In this document: piece by piece, positions 3,194-35,131 of the stretch
Position numbering within the stretch: position 1 is the first letter of the stretch
Layout of the letters: every line of letters begins with the position of its first letter
Source: Escherichia coli
Lineage (GTDB): Bacteria > Pseudomonadota > Gammaproteobacteria > Enterobacterales > Enterobacteriaceae
Assembly: GCF_041886205.1 (NCBI RefSeq)
Contig: NZ_CP169029.1
Reading direction: 5' to 3' (one strand)
Length of the DNA stretch: 64,000 nucleotides
The notes under the pieces: generated by a model
The model's input: only the letters and a program-made list of their open reading frames with translations
What the model was told of the DNA's origin: nothing
The model's database searches: none
Translations under genes and position numbers: made by a program

Positions 3194-3309
3194 TAATTGT
3201 CGCGAAACTGTCTGGATTGTGAGCAAAGGCGCAGGAATTCAGACACTCTCACTTATCACTTCACGGAATGAGGGTTACCATACCCGGATTGCATTGACAG
3301 GAGATGTCC

Positions 3310-4353
3310 ATGAGCGAGAACTCGATTCGTTTGACCCAATACAGCCACGGAGCTGGTTGCGGCTGTAAAATTTCCCCAAAAGTGTTGGAAACCATCCTGC
3401 ACAGTGAGCAGGCGAAGTTTGTTGATCCGAATTTGCTTGTGGGTAATGAAACCCGCGACGATGCGGCGGTGTACGATCTGGGCAATGGCACCAGCGTTAT
3501 CAGTACCACCGACTTCTTTATGCCGATCGTTGATAATCCTTTCGATTTTGGCCGCATTGCGGCGACTAACGCCATCAGCGATATCTTCGCGATGGGGGGC
3601 AAACCGATTATGGCGATTGCGATCCTCGGCTGGCCGATTAACAAGCTTTCCCCAGAGATTGCCCGCGAAGTAACCGAAGGTGGTCGCTATGCATGCCGTC
3701 AGGCGGGTATTGCGCTGGCTGGCGGTCACTCCATCGATGCGCCGGAGCCGATTTTTGGTCTGGCGGTAACGGGGATCGTACCGACCGAGCGGGTGAAGAA
3801 AAACAGTACCGCACAAGCCGGATGCAAACTGTTCCTGACGAAACCGCTGGGGATCGGCGTTCTTACCACGGCTGAGAAAAAATCACTGCTGAAACCAGAA
3901 CATCAGGGACTGGCGACGGAGGTGATGTGCCGGATGAACATCGCAGGCGCGTCCTTTGCCAACATCGAAGGCGTAAAAGCGATGACCGACGTTACGGGTT
4001 TTGGTCTGCTGGGCCATTTGAGCGAAATGTGTCAGGGCGCAGGTGTGCAGGCGCGCGTTGACTATGACGCGATCCCAAAATTGCCGGGGGTTGAAGAGTA
4101 CATTAAGTTGGGCGCAGTGCCTGGCGGCACCGAACGTAACTTTGCCAGCTACGGTCATCTGATGGGTGAAATGCCGCGTGAAGTGCGCGATTTGCTGTGC
4201 GATCCGCAAACTTCTGGCGGTTTGCTGCTGGCGGTCATGCCGGAAGCAGAAAATGAGGTTAAAGCTACAGCCGCCGAGTTTGGCATTGAACTGACGGCGA
4301 TTGGCGAACTGGTGCCAGCGCGCGGCGGTCGTGCCATGGTTGAGATCAGTTAA
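3310..4353 (+). CDS. selD: Selenide, water dikinase (selenophosphate synthetase), 347 aa
   Basis: ORF track 3304..4353; second ATG (3310) gives [20 protein letters not shown]...; the active-site residue is an ordinary Cys codon, not UGA. Confidence 0.92.
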
Positions 4354-4357
4354 TTCA

Positions 4358-6319
4358 ATGCGGTTGTTTATTGCCGAAAAACCGAGTCTGGCGCGCGCCA
4401 TTGCTGATGTCCTGCCCAAACCGCACCGTAAAGGCGATGGCTTTATCGAGTGCGGTAATGGTCAGGTGGTGACCTGGTGTATCGGTCACCTGCTTGAGCA
4501 GGCGCAGCCAGACGCCTACGACAGCCGCTATGCGCGCTGGAATCTTGCGGATTTGCCGATTGTCCCGGAAAAGTGGCAATTACAGCCCCGACCCTCCGTG
4601 ACCAAACAACTTAATGTCATCAAACGCTTTTTGCATGAAGCCAGCGAAATTGTTCATGCCGGAGACCCGGATCGCGAAGGGCAATTGCTGGTGGATGAAG
4701 TGCTGGACTATCTGCAACTGGCACCGGAAAAGCGCCAGCAGGTGCAGCGTTGCTTGATAAACGACCTGAACCCGCAGGCGGTTGAGCGGGCGATCGACCG
4801 TCTTCGTTCCAACAGTGAGTTTGTGCCATTGTGCGTTTCTGCGCTGGCGCGAGCGCGTGCCGACTGGTTATACGGCATCAATATGACCCGTGCGTATACC
4901 ATTCTCGGTCGCAATGCCGGTTATCAGGGCGTACTTTCCGTGGGACGCGTGCAGACACCCGTGCTCGGGCTGGTGGTGCGCCGCGATGAAGAGATTGAAA
5001 ACTTCGTGGCGAAAGACTTCTTTGAAGTCAAAGCACATATCGTGACACCTGCCGATGAGCGGTTTACCGCTATCTGGCAACCGAGCGAAGCGTGTGAACC
5101 GTACCAGGATGAAGAAGGGCGCTTGTTACATCGTCCACTGGCGGAGCATGTGGTTAACCGCATTAGTGGTCAACCGGCTATTGTCACCAGCTATAACGAT
5201 AAACGGGAATCAGAATCCGCGCCGCTGCCGTTTTCGCTTTCGGCGTTGCAGATTGAAGCGGCAAAACGCTTCGGTCTGAGCGCGCAGAACGTGCTTGATA
5301 TCTGCCAGAAGCTGTACGAAACGCACAAGCTAATCACTTATCCGCGTTCCGATTGTCGCTATTTGCCAGAAGAACATTTTGCCGGACGCCACGCGGTGAT
5401 GAATGCCATCAGTGTTCATGCACCAGATCTGTTGCCGCAGCCAGTGGTAGATCCAGATATACGCAACCGCTGTTGGGATGACAAAAAGGTCGATGCGCAC
5501 CACGCCATCATCCCGACCGCACGGAGTTCTGTGATCAACCTGACGGAGAACGAAGCGAAGGTCTATAACCTGATTGCCCGTCAGTACTTGATGCAGTTCT
5601 GCCCGGATGCGGTGTTCCGCAAGTGTGTTATCGATCTGGACATTGCCAAAGGCAAATTTGTCGCTAAAGCGCGTTTTCTTGCTGAAGCAGGCTGGCGCAC
5701 GCTGTTAGGCAGCAAAGAGCGCGATGAAGAAAACGACGGCACGCCACTGCCTGTGGTGGCGAAAGGCGATGAGTTGCTGTGTGAAAAAGGTGAAGTGGTA
5801 GAGCGGCAAACCCAGCCGCCGCGCCATTTTACCGATGCAACACTGCTTGCGGCAATGACCGGGATCGCGCGCTTTGTGCAGGACAAAGATCTGAAAAAGA
5901 TCCTTCGTGCGACCGATGGTCTGGGGACAGAGGCAACGCGTGCCGGGATTATTGAACTGTTGTTCAAGCGTGGTTTCCTGACCAAAAAAGGGCGCTATAT
6001 CCACTCCACCGACGCCGGAAAAGCGCTATTCCATTCGCTGCCGGAGATGGCCACGAGACCGGACATGACCGCGCACTGGGAATCGGTGCTGACGCAAATC
6101 AGTGAAAAGCAGTGTCGCTATCAGGACTTTATGCAGCCGCTGGTGGGGACGCTATATCAGCTTATTGATCAAGCCAAACGTACGCCGGTGCGGCAGTTTC
6201 GCGGCATAGTGGCTCCGGGCAGTGGTGGCAGTGCTGATAAGAAAAAGGCTGCACCGCGTAAACGTAGTGCGAAAAAAATTCCGCCAGCAGATGAAGCCGG
6301 AAGCGGGGCGATAGCGTAA
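4358..6319 (+). CDS. topB: DNA topoisomerase III, 653 aa
   Basis: ORF track 4301..6319; internal start [20 protein letters not shown] (ATG 4358) 4 bp after the selD stop; type IA topoisomerase TOPRIM N-terminus. Confidence 0.92.
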
Positions 6320-6446
6320 GCGAGCGAATCTTTCGTGCTATTCGAGTCATATTCTGAAATATCCAGCGGATCAAGAAAATTCGTTGGATATTTTTTTTGC
6401 ATGGATAAAATTATTGCCTCTAAAGTATGTAATAACAGGGAATGTG

Positions 6447-7478
6447 ATGAAAAAAGTTTTATTACAAAACCATCCAGGGAGTGAAAAGTATTCTTTTAAC
6501 GGCTGGGAAATATTTAATATTAATTTAGATCAGGTGATTAAAGAAAATAAACCTATGCTGCTTTGTAAGTGGGGGTTTTATATAACCTGCACTTTCGCTG
6601 CACTGTTAGTTTGTGCAGGTCTTACAGCAAATGGTTTAAGTGATAAAGGCAAAGTGTCCGCTGGCTATGCTTTTCTTTATCTTTTAATTATGGCGGGTTT
6701 GGTTATTCGAGCTGGCTTCAGAGCAAAAAAAGAACAGTTACACTATTATAAGGCAAAGGGTATTGAGCCGCTGAGTGAAGATAAGTTGCAGGCATTGCGG
6801 CTGATTGCACCCAATCGATTCTATAACCAACAGTGGTCTGAATCGCTTGAATTTTGGCCACGTAAGCCTGCATTGGGAACGGATACTTTTCGCTATCATG
6901 TTTTACGTTTTGAATCTGTCGGAGTGACTCGCCAGCGTCGCAAGTCTTTGGATGACAGCTGGGGGATAGTCGATAGCCAAAGTTATATCGCTTTAATGGA
7001 ATATTTTCTTTCAGGTGAGCATGGCTCAAATGCATTTAAAGAACACATGGAAGAAAATCCGCAAGAAGTGATTGCCATGTTAAGTAAGGTTAAGGAATTT
7101 CCTGAGGATTATCTTTATGACTGTACCATCCGTCGAATTGATAAGTCATCTCCACGCTTGATATGGGCTGCCGAGATAGCATGGATAATAGGCTTAACCT
7201 GCTCGACATACCAGAATGGAACGATTGAGGAAGATCTGGCCTGGCACTATATTTTGACTGCCTCGAAAAAAGCCTATGAACTCTTTGAGAGCGAAGAAGA
7301 GTTCCATCGAAACAGTTTGATGGGGTCATGGTACTGGCATGCTTTCTGCTATCGAATGAAACTCATGGACGCTGAGCTGGAAGAAGGTCATCTCTACGAC
7401 GTGGAAATTCTGGAACATTACCGAAAGAAGTGTCGTTGGCCCATTAAAAACCTTCCCTGGGGCACATCCTCAAACTGA
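6447..7478 (+). CDS. ynjI: Inner-membrane protein YnjI (DUF1266 family)
   Basis: ORF track 6384..7478; ATG 6447 is preferred because of the aggga Shine-Dalgarno 6 nt upstream (start is uncertain, GTG 6444 or ATG 6384 are possible); visibly AT-rich compared with flanking genes. Confidence 0.75.
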   Translation: MKKVLLQNHPGSEKYSFNGWEIFNINLDQVIKENKPMLLCKWGFYITCTFAALLVCAGLTANGLSDKGKVSAGYAFLYLLIMAGLVIRAGFRAKKEQLHYYKAKGIEPLSEDKLQALRLIAPNRFYNQQWSESLEFWPRKPALGTDTFRYHVLRFESVGVTRQRRKSLDDSWGIVDSQSYIALMEYFLSGEHGSNAFKEHMEENPQEVIAMLSKVKEFPEDYLYDCTIRRIDKSSPRLIWAAEIAWIIGLTCSTYQNGTIEEDLAWHYILTASKKAYELFESEEEFHRNSLMGSWYWHAFCYRMKLMDAELEEGHLYDVEILEHYRKKCRWPIKNLPWGTSSN

Positions 7479-7508
7479 CCTCTTTGCCGGGGGCGCTGCG
7501 CTTGCCCT

Positions 7509-7580
7509 GCCTACATTAGAGCGTAACTGCAATGAATTGTGCCCATTTGTAGGCCTGATAAGCGTAGCGCCATCAGGCAT
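7509..7580. repeat. REP/BIME-like palindromic element between ynjI and gdhA
   Basis: gtaggcctgataagcgtagcgccatcaggc at 7550-7579 matches the E. coli REP consensus; preceded by an inverted gcctac...gtaggc segment. Confidence 0.7.
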
Positions 7581-7587
7581 TTACAAC

Positions 7588-8931
7588 TTAAATCACACCC
7601 TGCGCCAGCATCGCATCGGCAACCTTCACAAAACCGGCAATGTTCGCGCCCTGCACGTAGTTGGTTTGCTCACCTTCACCACCATGCTCAACACAGGCAT
7701 GGTGGATATCCAGCATGATGTGATGCAAACGTGCGTCAACTTTCTCGGCTTTCCAGCCCAGGCGCGCAGCGTTTTGCGCCATTTCAAGGCCTGACGTTGC
7801 TACACCGCCAGCATTAGCCGCTTTACCCGGTGCAAACAGTACGCCTGCCTGCTGGAACAGTTCAGTCGCTTCGATGGTGGTCGGCATATTTGCCCCTTCG
7901 GCGACGGCTTTAACGCCATTGGCGATAAGCTGATGCGCGGCGTCAACATCCAGTTCGTTCTGGGTGGCGCAAGGCAGGGCGATATCAACCGGTACAGACC
8001 ACGGCTGTTGGCCTTCGAGATAGACCAGACCAAATTCTTTGGCGTAATCAGCCACTCGACCATCGCGGCTGGCTTTGATTTCGATAAGGCGTGCCAGTTT
8101 CTCTTTCGTGAATCCGCTTTCATCAACTACAGTGCCGCTGGAGTCTGACGCAGTGATCACACGAGCACCAAATTCCATCGCTTTTTCGATAGCGTACTGG
8201 GCGACGTTGCCGGAGCCAGAAACGGAAACGCGCATCCCTTCAAAACCCATACCGTGGCGTTTTAACATTGCTTCTGTGAAATAAACCAGACCGTAGCCGG
8301 TAGCTTCCGGGCGAATAAGACTGCCGCCAAATGAAAGGCCCTTACCGGTGAAGACGCAGGAGGTATTGTTGGAGAGCTTTTTCATCATCCCCGCCATAAA
8401 GCCGACTTCACGACCACCAACCCCGATATCACCTGCCGGAACGTCGGTATCCGCGCCCAGGTGGCGATACAGTTCAGTCATCAGCGCCTGGCAAAAACGC
8501 ATCACTTCACCTTCGCTTTTTCCTTTCGGATCGAAATCGCTGCCGCCTTTACCACCGCCCATCGGCAGAGTAGTCAGGGCATTTTTGAAGGTTTGCTCGA
8601 AGCCGAGGAATTTGAGAATGGAGAGGTTAACTGACGGATGGAAGCGCATACCGCCTTTGTACGGGCCGATGGCAGAGCTGAACTGCACACGCCATGCACG
8701 GTTGACCTGTACCTGATTGCGATCATCAACCCATACCACGCGAAACTGGATCACGCGCTCCGGTTCAACCAGACGCTCCAGTAATGACATCTGGCGATAT
8801 TTTGGATTTTGTTCAAGAAAAGGCCAGAGTGTGGTCATTACTTCACGAACGGCTTGCGCGAACTCGGTTTGATTCGGGTCGCGCTTTTGGACATGGTTGA
8901 GGAATGACTCCAGAGAATATGTCTGATCCAT
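7588..8931 (-). CDS. gdhA: NADP-specific glutamate dehydrogenase, 447 aa
   Basis: ORF track 7588..8931; MDQTYSLESFLNHVQKRDP...; GGGKGG active-site motif present. Confidence 0.95.
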   Translation of the reverse strand: MDQTYSLESFLNHVQKRDPNQTEFAQAVREVMTTLWPFLEQNPKYRQMSLLERLVEPERVIQFRVVWVDDRNQVQVNRAWRVQFSSAIGPYKGGMRFHPSVNLSILKFLGFEQTFKNALTTLPMGGGKGGSDFDPKGKSEGEVMRFCQALMTELYRHLGADTDVPAGDIGVGGREVGFMAGMMKKLSNNTSCVFTGKGLSFGGSLIRPEATGYGLVYFTEAMLKRHGMGFEGMRVSVSGSGNVAQYAIEKAMEFGARVITASDSSGTVVDESGFTKEKLARLIEIKASRDGRVADYAKEFGLVYLEGQQPWSVPVDIALPCATQNELDVDAAHQLIANGVKAVAEGANMPTTIEATELFQQAGVLFAPGKAANAGGVATSGLEMAQNAARLGWKAEKVDARLHHIMLDIHHACVEHGGEGEQTNYVQGANIAGFVKVADAMLAQGVI

Positions 8932-10527: not shown

Positions 10528-11835
10528 TTATTTGCTGCTGTCCGGGCCGCGTTCACCGGTTGCTACCGGATTTTTTGGATCGCTGCTCCATTCGTACCAG
10601 CCGCCGTCGTAAACGGAGACGTTATTCCAGCCCATTGCTCGTGCGTACATAAAGGTTTCGGACGCGCGCCAGCCGGTGCCGCAGTAGAATGAAACTTGCT
10701 GATCTGGTTTGATATTCCATGCTTTCCACATAGCGGTAATATCATCGGCGCTACGCATGGTGCCATCCGGGTTATGGAAATCTTCCATATGCGTCGAGTC
10801 GCTACCAGCGTGTCCCCAACGTGCTCCGGCTATTTCACCTTTTGGTTTAATATAGCTGTAACCGCTGGTCGTACCGATAAATTCTGGCCACGAACGAATG
10901 CTCACCAGCGATGCATCCTGGCGATGCAGCAGTCCACGCGCCTGTTCCATATCAAGCATCAGTTGCGGTTGTGCCGGGATCTTCACGCCGAAATCCGGTT
11001 CCGCTTTCACTTTCGGTGGCGTTCCGCGCTCAACGGGCAGTCCCGCGTCGGACCAGGTTTGCCAGCCGCCGTCCAGCAGGCGGACATCTTTCACGCCAGC
11101 GTAGAGCATAATTTGTGCCACACGCGCTGCAGCGTATACGTCACGCCCGTACAGAATGACCGTGGTGTCATGGCGAATGCCGTGTTTTGCCAGCATCGCT
11201 TTTAGTTGTTCATCAGAAACTTTGTTCCACAGCGGTTCGCTTTCCACTTCGTTGGTATCGATGTAGTCAGCACCGGGAATATGGCTGATAAGGTAAAGCT
11301 TCGGAGCGCCCCAGGCCGCTTCAATGACTTTCCAGTCACCGGCAGGTTTCGCCGTAACCTCTTTACCTTGTTGCAGGTCATGCAGCCATTGCGGATAAAC
11401 CAGCTGCTCAAAGTGCGGCAGTTTTTGCAGACGGGAAGGTTCGCTTAGCGCGTCACTCAGGATGGAGATACGCGTAAAACCTGCTTTTTGCAGACGCGTT
11501 TTGACGGCATCGACATCTTTGTCATTACCGTACAGCGCCACCGGAGCATCGGTTTTCAGGTTATGTTGCTTGATCCACGCGTTGAGCTGTTCGGTGCTCA
11601 TTTTGTCGAGCCAGCTGGCAGAGAGGTTTAAGGCGGCAGGTTCATGACCAGAAGGGCCATTTAAGGTTTGTGGCCAGCCGTTATAAAACGCGCTGGGGCG
11701 AGTATCTATCGCTTTGCCATTTTGTTTCTGAAGCTGGTCAAGTGTAAGAGGCTTCGCCAGTTCAGCGGCCCACGAAGAAGCGCAAGCCAGCCCTAAAGCC
11801 ATTGCCAGCGCGGTCATTTGAGAAACACGTTTCAT
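10528..11835 (-). CDS. ynjE: Periplasmic triple-rhodanese-domain sulfurtransferase, 435 aa
   Basis: ORF track 10528..11850; internal start MKRVSQMTALAMALGLACASSWA (signal peptide); rhodanese active-site Cys context (YCGTGWRA). Confidence 0.88.
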   Translation of the reverse strand: MKRVSQMTALAMALGLACASSWAAELAKPLTLDQLQKQNGKAIDTRPSAFYNGWPQTLNGPSGHEPAALNLSASWLDKMSTEQLNAWIKQHNLKTDAPVALYGNDKDVDAVKTRLQKAGFTRISILSDALSEPSRLQKLPHFEQLVYPQWLHDLQQGKEVTAKPAGDWKVIEAAWGAPKLYLISHIPGADYIDTNEVESEPLWNKVSDEQLKAMLAKHGIRHDTTVILYGRDVYAAARVAQIMLYAGVKDVRLLDGGWQTWSDAGLPVERGTPPKVKAEPDFGVKIPAQPQLMLDMEQARGLLHRQDASLVSIRSWPEFIGTTSGYSYIKPKGEIAGARWGHAGSDSTHMEDFHNPDGTMRSADDITAMWKAWNIKPDQQVSFYCGTGWRASETFMYARAMGWNNVSVYDGGWYEWSSDPKNPVATGERGPDSSK

Positions 11836-18873: not shown

Positions 18874-19230
18874 AGTCGCTGCCATTTATTCAGATAAAGA
18901 GTGCGTGGATGGTAGCAGAATTTCGCGTTGCTTACTGCCTGTTGTTAAGTGATTTGATCGATGGTTGTTAATGATGTCAACGATGGCGCAAAAAATGCCC
19001 GCTTTTGGTGCGCGCTGCGTCAGAATGGCGCAGTAATTTCCAGTAAATTTCGTCAATGATCACAATTCCAGAATTATATTTTACTTCTGCATAACATTGC
19101 GTTTTTTATTCTTTTTATTCACCCACATCGCAAACGTATTCACTTTATATGCACTTTAAATGCATATGGTTTGGTTATAACTCCTTGATTTCCAGTTAGC
19201 CTCCGCCGTTTATGCACTTTTATCACTGGC

Positions 19231-19246
19231 TGGCACGAACCCTGCA
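19231..19246 (+). promoter_or_regulatory. Sigma54 (-24/-12) promoter of the ast operon
   Basis: TGGCAC-N5-CTGCA at 19231-19246, about 75 bp upstream of astC; the ast operon is known to be NtrC/sigma54 and sigmaS controlled. Confidence 0.6.
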
Positions 19247-19282
19247 ATCTACATTTACAGCGCAAACATTACTTATTATTAA

Positions 19283-25346
<6,064 letters not shown>

Positions 25347-25591
25347 TACTTACCCGCAGAAATCATTCTGCGGGTATTAAGTTGCTTTCTTATAAATTAA
25401 TACAGATTAATCCTGGTTATTTGCTTTATTTATCACCAGTCATCCGGTATAGTTCTTCATAATCTCTGCAAAATCATCGTGTTGTAATATTCTCTCATCA
25501 CTCTCCATCAAATTTTCTTTTTTTCTCCATAATTGGCGCAAAAGTGTTTTTTACACTTTCATTGTTTTACCGTTGCTCTGATTAATTGACG

Positions 25592-27883: not shown

Positions 27884-27973
27884 TACGCCTGTCAGGCCTA
27901 TTCGACTCCTGCAATGTATTGAATTTGCAAAGTTTTACAGGCCGGATAAGACGCTTACGCCATATCCGGCATG
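27884..27973. repeat. REP/BIME cluster between cho and nadE
   Basis: acgcctgtcaggcctat and caggccggataagacgcttacgccatatccggcatg flank a ctgcaatgtattgaatttgcaaagtttta linker. Confidence 0.75.
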
Positions 27974-34939: not shown

Positions 34940-35131
34940 TTGCCAGATGCGGCGTGAACCTTGCATCCAGCGATTAATTCCTACAAAGGCGGCGTAACTG
35001 CGCCGCTTGAGACTGCTGACAAACGCAAAACTGCCTGATGCGCTTCGCTTATCAGGCCTACGTTTTTCCTGCAATATATTGAATTTGCACAGTTTTGTAG
35101 GCCGGATAAGGCGTTCACGCCGCATCCGGCA
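34940..35131. repeat. REP/BIME cluster between chbG and katE
   Basis: ctgcctgatgcgcttcgcttatcaggcctac (35031-35061) and gtaggccggataaggcgttcacgccgcatccggc (35097-35130) around a ctgcaatatattgaatttgcacagtttt linker almost identical to the one at 27903-27936. Confidence 0.75.

Follow-up and report, generated by a model that had tools for sequence, protein, structure and literature searches.

The sigma-54 promoter astCp2 and the overlapping gene junctions of the astCADBE operon in an Escherichia coli genome

The astCADBE operon of Escherichia coli K-12 is reportedly transcribed from astCp2, a sigma-54- and NtrC-dependent promoter said to have been described by Kiupakis and Reitzer in 2002, and the ast operon of Salmonella Typhimurium is said to have been treated by Lu and Abdelal in 1999. 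The classical NtrC-activated sigma-54 promoters glnHp2 and glnAp2 share with ast the tandem upstream NtrC dyads and the activation by looping, and in glnHp2 an architectural protein is situated between enhancer and promoter. At ast this intervening protein is, as summarized in the literature, ArgR with arginine and not IHF as in glnHp2, and the ast enhancer, placed from the sequence at approximately -233 and -253, would lie farther from its promoter than those of glnHp2 and glnAp2. The AST pathway is also encoded by aruCFGDBE of Pseudomonas aeruginosa, which has a similar gene content and two succinyltransferase subunits, AruF and AruG, and which to our knowledge is under ArgR-activated control without NtrC or sigma-54.

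In K-12, the sigma-54 ChIP-seq peak OS17 of Bonocora 2015 was assigned to astC, its start being predicted 62 nt before the ATG, and was flagged as experimentally confirmed in EcoCyc (PMC4591121). In genomic SELEX, NtrC as well as RpoN holoenzyme gave peaks within the astC/xthA spacer, and astC is counted there with the small number of RpoN promoters that have been confirmed by experiment (PMC8743547). Also NtrC ChIP-seq under nitrogen starvation detected a peak assigned to astCADBE (PMC4066584), and induction of ast under nitrogen limitation has been published. ArgR with arginine boosts the sigma-54-dependent ast expression and is not essential for it (PMC3037356). The promoter astCp2 is weak and naturally associated with ArgR, and in synthetic constructs it was a weak NtrC-dependent promoter, among the weakest sigma-54 promoters of the reporter sets (bioRxiv 086108; PMC7045595); its reporter expression was NtrC-dependent and higher than that of the no-promoter control (bioRxiv 086108). 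RpoS-dependent transcription of ast is well documented too, including transcription from the core astC promoter fragment. In Salmonella Typhimurium, the orthologous promoter TGGCACGAATGCTGCAAT was bound by sigma-54 in vivo, and the operon was listed as NtrC-dependent (PMC3844500).

The window analyzed here, a stretch of 64,000 nucleotides of an E. coli contig (NZ_CP169029.1), was colinear with K-12 MG1655 over its whole length, from ansA to ppsR, with 97.7–99.1% identity save for two 768-bp insertions. In K-12 the site is surrounded by xthA (divergent), astC, astA, astD, astB, astE and spy, and the five ast genes had the same order and lengths in the window. The xthA–astC spacer (18886–19318) was identical to that of MG1655 in 432 of its 433 positions, the sole SNP being at 18937 on the xthA side, far from the promoter. 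K-12 astCp2 was matched exactly in its -24/-12 element and upstream dyads, its spacing from the ATG and its A/T-rich blocks, and the operon was built in the same way; the differences consisted of this one SNP together with differences in the coding sequences. The comparison with K-12 suggested in the original prediction thus showed an intact operon in the same order, with the only spacer difference outside the motif. The feature is almost certainly the known sigma-54-dependent astCp2 promoter with the astCADBE operon of E. coli, and as such already known.

The motif TGGCAC-N5-CTGCA predicted upstream of astC was found at 19231–19246 on the plus strand as TGGCACGAACCCTGCA. The GG doublet is at 19232–33 and the GC doublet at 19244–45, their 10-nt separation being canonical, and the sole deviation from TGGCAC-N5-TTGCA (and likewise from TGGCAC-N5-TTGCW) is C for T at position -15. 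The element is intergenic within the xthA–astC spacer and points to astC. The transcription start was placed 12 nt past the GC of the -12 element, the Bonocora rule that gives the distance of 62, and the predicted +1 is then A19257, 62 nt 5' of the astC ATG (19319). The 17-mer CTGGCACGAACCCTGCA (19230–19246 in the window) is the motif under the K-12 peak OS17 (PMC4591121). This identity bears out the claim of a sigma-54 promoter, which is not the sole published promoter of the operon as RpoS-dependent transcription has been described too. The reading of the operon as a nitrogen-regulated arginine succinyltransferase pathway is supported by the published sigma-54 and NtrC occupancy of the same sequence in K-12.

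By itself the motif was only weakly beyond chance. Exact matches to TGGCAC-N5-YTGCA were expected 0.10 times per shuffled window, at least one being present in 9 of 100 shuffles, and when one mismatch was allowed there were 3 matches in the window against 3.6 expected. With a matrix built from 28 Salmonella sigma-54 ChIP sites, astC left out, the ast site scored 18.7 bits, within the range of the training sites (16.1–23.8 bits), while the best scores of shuffled windows, 13.8 ± 2.3 bits, did not exceed 20.1. The proposed weight-matrix check recovered the ast site only as the third in the window after two intragenic sites, in ynjI (20.8 bits) and ynjE (19.4 bits). Since these two outscore the ast site, the sequence alone is not decisive.

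The higher scores of the two intragenic sites would suit an alternative in which the ast motif is a silent or chance sigma-54 site and the operon is driven by sigma-S or sigma-70 promoters of the spacer. Such an explanation would also be in line with the large share of E. coli sigma-54 ChIP sites that are intragenic (62%), mostly inactive under the tested conditions (PMC4591121), with the rank of astCp2 among the weakest sigma-54 promoters in the reporter sets, with the documented RpoS-dependent transcription, and with a sigma-S-type -10-like sequence, CTACATTT, that overlaps the sigma-54 site. However, the ast site is intergenic, rightly oriented and 62 nt from the ATG by its predicted start, it is listed as experimentally confirmed (EcoCyc, via PMC4591121), and the spacer is bound by NtrC (PMC8743547, PMC4066584). 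Further against it, the operon is induced under nitrogen limitation, the reporter expression is NtrC-dependent and exceeds the no-promoter control, and the -24/-12 element is the most conserved one of the spacer across nine genera. The sigma-S promoter is additional to the sigma-54 promoter and not a replacement for it. A silent or chance site is consequently considered highly improbable. The sigma-54 promoter of ast is real, as its position, orientation and conservation together with the published binding data indicate. In the plus strand of the spacer, a scan with the sigma-70 consensus gave no convincing match.

Within E. coli, the spacer was present in 5424 of the 5426 complete genomes with 90–100% identity. 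The 60-mer at 19216–19275 was identical in 4524 of these 5424 genomes and the other 900 had one to three differences; in the four variants sampled every SNP was located outside TGGCAC-N5-CTGCAAT. For the comparison across genera, orthologous loci were collected by AstA protein search and contig look-ups, and the set included Escherichia together with Salmonella, Leclercia, Atlantibacter, Raoultella, Kosakonia, Siccibacter, Pseudocitrobacter and Yokenella. A scan of genome contigs (298 Gb) with TGGCACGAANNNCTGCAAT was also made for orthologous promoters. This pattern is too short: at least 120 matches were listed, all interpreted as chance matches in unrelated phyla, and tblastn with the five Ast proteins identified no ast locus there, so they were rejected as orthologous promoters.

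In all the compared loci astCADBE was preceded by xthA or by xthA and a small insert. In Pseudocitrobacter, the xthA–astC spacer includes an extra gene for a 50-aa Hok/Gef-family toxin (positions 3197–3349 of locus L134), which separates xthA from the ast regulatory region. When aligned, the nine spacers had a mean column identity of 71%. The core at 19227–19262 reached 0.93, the maximum of the spacer, and the remainder varied between 0.61 and 0.80. Both GCTGGCA (-28 to -22) and TGCAATCTACATTTACAGCG (-14 to +6) were invariant or nearly so in the nine genera. The three bases 5' of -15 varied freely, and position -15 itself was C or G, never the consensus T. The Salmonella Typhimurium promoter (STM1303; Samuels 2013), TGGCACGAA-NNN-CTGCAAT, has C at -15 as in the window, and differs in the three spacer bases (TGC against CCC).

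The conservation between -10 and +6 in the nine genera exceeds what the sigma-54 contacts need. This region includes the putative sigma-S/sigma-70-type -10 sequence CTACATTT (19249–19256, plus strand), which overlaps the sigma-54 melting region and resembles an extended -10 of sigma-S promoters, for which C at -13 is part of the consensus. As a sigma-S -10, CTACATTT would explain the published RpoS-dependent transcription from the core astC fragment, and the RpoS-dependent expression known from stationary phase is probably due to a -10 of this type that overlaps the start region. The invariant 20-nt TGCAATCTACATTTACAGCG could then hold two overlapping promoters, so that a poised closed complex of sigma-54 would keep the sigma-S holoenzyme off the DNA and vice versa; this is a tentative proposal, possible and yet rather doubtful. 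If true, it would represent a conserved either/or switch between expression of arginine catabolism under nitrogen limitation and in stationary phase. Both promoters have already been reported, so only the conserved mutual occlusion would be new, and also this may already be described.

The same extension of conservation past the sigma-54 contacts could alternatively reflect a protein- or RNA-level element other than a sigma-S promoter at -14 to +6, for example a repressor site or a determinant of 5'-end stability. The Cappable-seq supplements, searched as text, included no start-site entry near astC and thus none for a second promoter, which would be compatible with such an element. Against it are the fit of CTACATTT to the sigma-S consensus, the published RpoS-dependent transcription from the core promoter fragment, and the lack of any matching Rfam family in the ast region and of structure in the untranslated region. 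An element of this other kind seems quite improbable, and overlapping sigma-54 and sigma-S promoters remain the preferred reading of the block. The predicted 5' UTR of astC covers 62 nt (19257–19318, plus strand) from the predicted +1 A19257, with the Shine-Dalgarno (SD) sequence GAGG at 19310–19313. It is A/U-rich and without significant structure (z = +0.84). Two motifs within it, TTAACAT (+23 to +29; 19279–19285) and ATTTAC (+44 to +49; 19300–19306), were conserved in the nine genera with fixed spacing.

Farther upstream, two NtrC-like dyads were distinguished: TGCCCG-N5-GGTGCG at 18996–19012, centred at approximately -253, and TGCGTC-N5-GGCGCA at 19016–19032, centred at approximately -233, both candidate upstream activator sites. 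They are 20 bp, or two helical turns, apart. Each has three mismatches to TGCACC-N5-GGTGCA, and single-site matches of this quality were present in the window at chance frequency (31 against 32.8 expected). The region 18990–19036 was mostly variable across the nine genera, but two TGC.C-N7-G.GC dyads were kept. It is thus the pattern of conservation, and not the count of consensus matches, that suggests these dyads to be NtrC sites. The published NtrC ChIP-seq interval (PMC4066584) covers the promoter and not the dyads 230–250 bp upstream. This placement fits looping combined with the limited resolution of ChIP and does not confirm the dyads.

Between the dyads and the promoter, conserved A/T-rich blocks include several TGAAT/TGCAT half-sites. 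The ARG-box-like candidate TCTGCATAACATTGCGTT (19086–19103) has a conserved left half, TGCAT/TGAAT, and five mismatches to the 18-bp ARG-box consensus as counted by eye. The second candidate, ATTCACTTTATATGCACT (19138–19155; -119 to -102), was the only match in the spacer to WNTGAATWWWWATTCANW with at most three mismatches, and is followed by a half-box at 19159–19176. Over the whole window, ARG-box matches occurred at chance level (10 against 8.3 expected). Also TATTCACT and TATATGCA formed invariant blocks across the nine genera. The A/T-rich ARG-box-like blocks may represent ArgR sites. One further conserved block, AAATTTCGTCAATGATCACAATTCCAGAATTATATTTTA, is located at 19045–19083 (-212 to -174, about 175–210 bp 5' of the ast start). 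Its GATCACA was invariant, and the mean column identity of the region 19040–19085 was 0.79 in the nine genera. The TCACA half-site of this block is reminiscent of CRP, which is recorded as a lead only; the block could serve either ast, in carbon-starvation control, or the divergent xthA.

In the proposed mechanism, sigma-54 RNA polymerase would bind as a closed complex on GG (-24) and GC (-12) of 19231–19246. Under nitrogen limitation, phosphorylated NtrC on the two dyads approximately 233 and 253 bp upstream would contact the polymerase by looping of the DNA, and this contact would lead to the formation of the open complex and to transcription from near A19257. When arginine is present, ArgR, bound between enhancer and promoter to the A/T-rich ARG-box-like blocks, would raise the expression further. 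The exact +1, the bases bound by NtrC and ArgR, the sigma-S -10 and the coupling at three of the junctions are what we infer within this scheme. The single mRNA encodes five enzymes, which together break arginine down to glutamate and succinate with release of two ammonia and CO2.

The five genes follow each other on the plus strand: astC for succinylornithine transaminase (19319–20539, 406 aa; NF009047, 847 bits against a cut-off of 630), astA for arginine N-succinyltransferase (20536–21570, 344 aa; NF007770 equivalog), astD for succinylglutamate-semialdehyde dehydrogenase (21567–23045, 492 aa; TIGR03240), astB for N-succinylarginine dihydrolase (23042–24385, 447 aa; TIGR03241) and astE for succinylglutamate desuccinylase (24378–25346, 322 aa; TIGR03242). 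All five proteins were above the curated NCBIfam cut-offs of their own families. AstA scored 346 bits against the cut-off of 459 for the AOST alpha-subunit family, i.e. below it, while exceeding the AstA cut-off. A longer astD reading frame from an upstream ATG at 21510, present in the mechanical list of open reading frames, was rejected in view of RefSeq, TIGR03240 and the gene calls in the eight other genera; in the 492-aa form the match to TIGR03240 sets in at residue 3, which supports the start at 21567 over that at 21510.

The coding sequences were 97.5–99.2% identical to those of K-12, with 18 amino-acid substitutions altogether (AstC 6, AstA 1, AstD 8, AstB 3, AstE 0). The statement that the operon shows no lesions in this strain was correct at the level of reading frames, as all five were open, of K-12 length and above the NCBIfam cut-offs. 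The strain carries an intact K-12-like ast operon with a nitrogen-regulated promoter, and arginine should therefore be usable as a nitrogen source. Nothing functional was apparent in the differences from K-12, and the result matters little beyond annotation. A hairpin with an 11-bp stem and a 4-nt loop is located 5 nt past the astE stop (25351–25376, plus strand; -21.7 kcal/mol, z = -6.39) and is the probable terminator of the operon. It was not included in the results of the terminator consensus scan because its U tract is weak.

The gene junctions were exactly as claimed, three 4-nt ATGA overlaps and one of 8 nt. The stop of astC and the start of astA overlap at 20536–20539, astA and astD at 21567–21570, and astD and astB at 23042–23045, and astB/astE share the 8-nt ATGGATAA at 24378–24385. 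These boundaries agree with the RefSeq annotation of K-12. The K-12 annotation lists 46 co-directional pairs of neighbouring genes across the stretch colinear with the window, and eight of these pairs overlap; ast accounts for each of the three 4-nt overlaps and for the single 8-nt one. Across the genera, ATGA was kept in eight of nine at astC/astA, in all nine at astA/astD and in eight of nine at astD/astB. The exceptions were Salmonella, whose AstC has two additional residues so that astC and astA overlap by 10 nt, and Leclercia, with 14 nt at astD/astB. Salmonella otherwise has the gene order and the astA/astD, astD/astB and astB/astE overlaps of the window. The 8-nt overlap of astB/astE was present only in Escherichia and Salmonella, the remaining seven genera having gaps of 9–27 nt and a stop codon that adjoins the SD. 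This comparison adds a minor refinement: in Enterobacteriaceae, purifying selection clearly acts on the -24/-12 core and on the three ATGA junctions.

Each of the four starts is preceded at 5–13 nt by an SD-like motif within the upstream gene (GAGG, GAGGAG, GAGGTGG and GGGAGGGGG), and these motifs are conserved in the genera compared. GAGG is located 10–13 nt 5' of the astA ATG, and GAGGAGAAAA before the astD start was invariant in all nine genera. Since each stop/start overlap is combined with an SD-like motif inside the upstream gene, re-initiation on the next gene is possible, and a ribosome terminating on one ast gene could re-initiate on the following one by termination–reinitiation via the overlapping stop and start.

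The closest described junctions are the five E. coli ATGA pairs of Huber 2019, which have a 4-nt stop/start overlap and an intragenic SD as at ast, and among which astD/astB is included (PMC6728339). When the K-12 astD/astB fragment (-99 to +30) was analyzed with a dual reporter and an mRNA control, it showed strong coupling, interpreted as termination–reinitiation, and stopping the ribosomes upstream left translation of the downstream gene very low or below detection (PMC6728339). The window differs from the K-12 fragment in seven of its 129 positions, none of them within 26 nt upstream of the ATG. The description of the junctions as translationally coupled in the original prediction is accordingly backed by published experiment at astD/astB (PMC6728339), while at astC/astA, astA/astD and astB/astE it is inference only, the coupling at these three being plausible from their sequences.

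The folding of the four junction fragments showed that only the RNA of astB/astE was more structured than shuffled sequences (z = -2.77). In this fragment (-99 to +30) the astE SD and AUG are inside a predicted hairpin, and the junction thus differs from the ATGA pairs of Huber 2019 both in its 8-nt overlap and in the hairpin predicted over the initiation site. The junction RNAs of astC/astA, astA/astD and astD/astB had no more structure than shuffles. As these three are unstructured and each downstream gene has an SD of its own, independent initiation may contribute.

A more far-reaching possibility would be that the overlaps are a by-product of compact packing, each gene being translated independently from its own SD without coupling. 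This could be argued from the SD-like motif found 5–13 nt before the start at every junction and from the three junction RNAs whose initiation sites may be accessible. Also, two of the five ATGA pairs were not fully coupled, bioBF being uncoupled and menDH partially coupled (PMC6728339), and the gap of 9–27 nt in seven of the nine genera demonstrates that an overlap is not required at astB/astE. Packing would not, however, predict the strong coupling at K-12 astD/astB (PMC6728339), the retention of ATGA in eight to nine of the nine genera at three junctions despite sequence divergence, nor the confinement of the 4-nt and 8-nt overlaps to ast among the 46 K-12 pairs. Independent translation of uncoupled genes is therefore regarded as unlikely, and termination–reinitiation is preferred.

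The two intragenic sites with matrix scores above that of the ast promoter are observations of their own. The ynjI site TGGCATGCTTTCTGCTAT (7335–7352, plus strand) corresponds to TGGCATATCTGCTGCTAT in K-12. The ynjE site TGGCACAAATTATGCTCT (11103–11120, minus strand) is in sense orientation, and its K-12 counterpart TGGCGCAGATTATGCTTT is the published ChIP-seq site IS23; compared to this K-12 sequence, the ynjE site of the window strain is nearer to consensus. A further sigma-54-like sequence, TGGCACGCAAATTGATAA, is located inside nlpC (59624–59641, plus strand; 16.1 bits) and is the same in K-12. No corresponding entry was found for it in the ChIP-seq table text searched. The ynjI gene itself (DUF1266, approximately 6450–7490) is a strongly divergent allele, with local identity to K-12 of about 67.5%; the region 6001–8000 includes 333 differences from K-12, and the flanking genes are 97–99% identical.

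An IS1 copy of 768 bp, absent from K-12, is present at 60614–61381 with 9-bp target duplications CGAACCGTT. It is situated inside ydiV, which encodes an anti-FlhDC factor, at approximately codon 178 of 237, and ydiV is therefore disrupted in the strain. The second IS1 (48141–48908) is inverted relative to the first, its InsA (91 aa) and InsB (167 aa) being encoded on the minus strand. It has the target duplication GCTCTGATG and is inserted within the 5' portion of what the K-12 annotation calls the espL1 pseudogene. The two copies differ in 26 of 768 positions and bracket thrS-infC-rplT-pheST-ihfA-btuCED-nlpC. Rfam matches at gathering level were found at 27894–27935 and 35054–35096 on the minus strand and at 52817–52941 and 56781–56939 on the plus strand, and included two ES036 (CssrF), the Phe leader, which is upstream of pheST, and the STnc540 sRNA.
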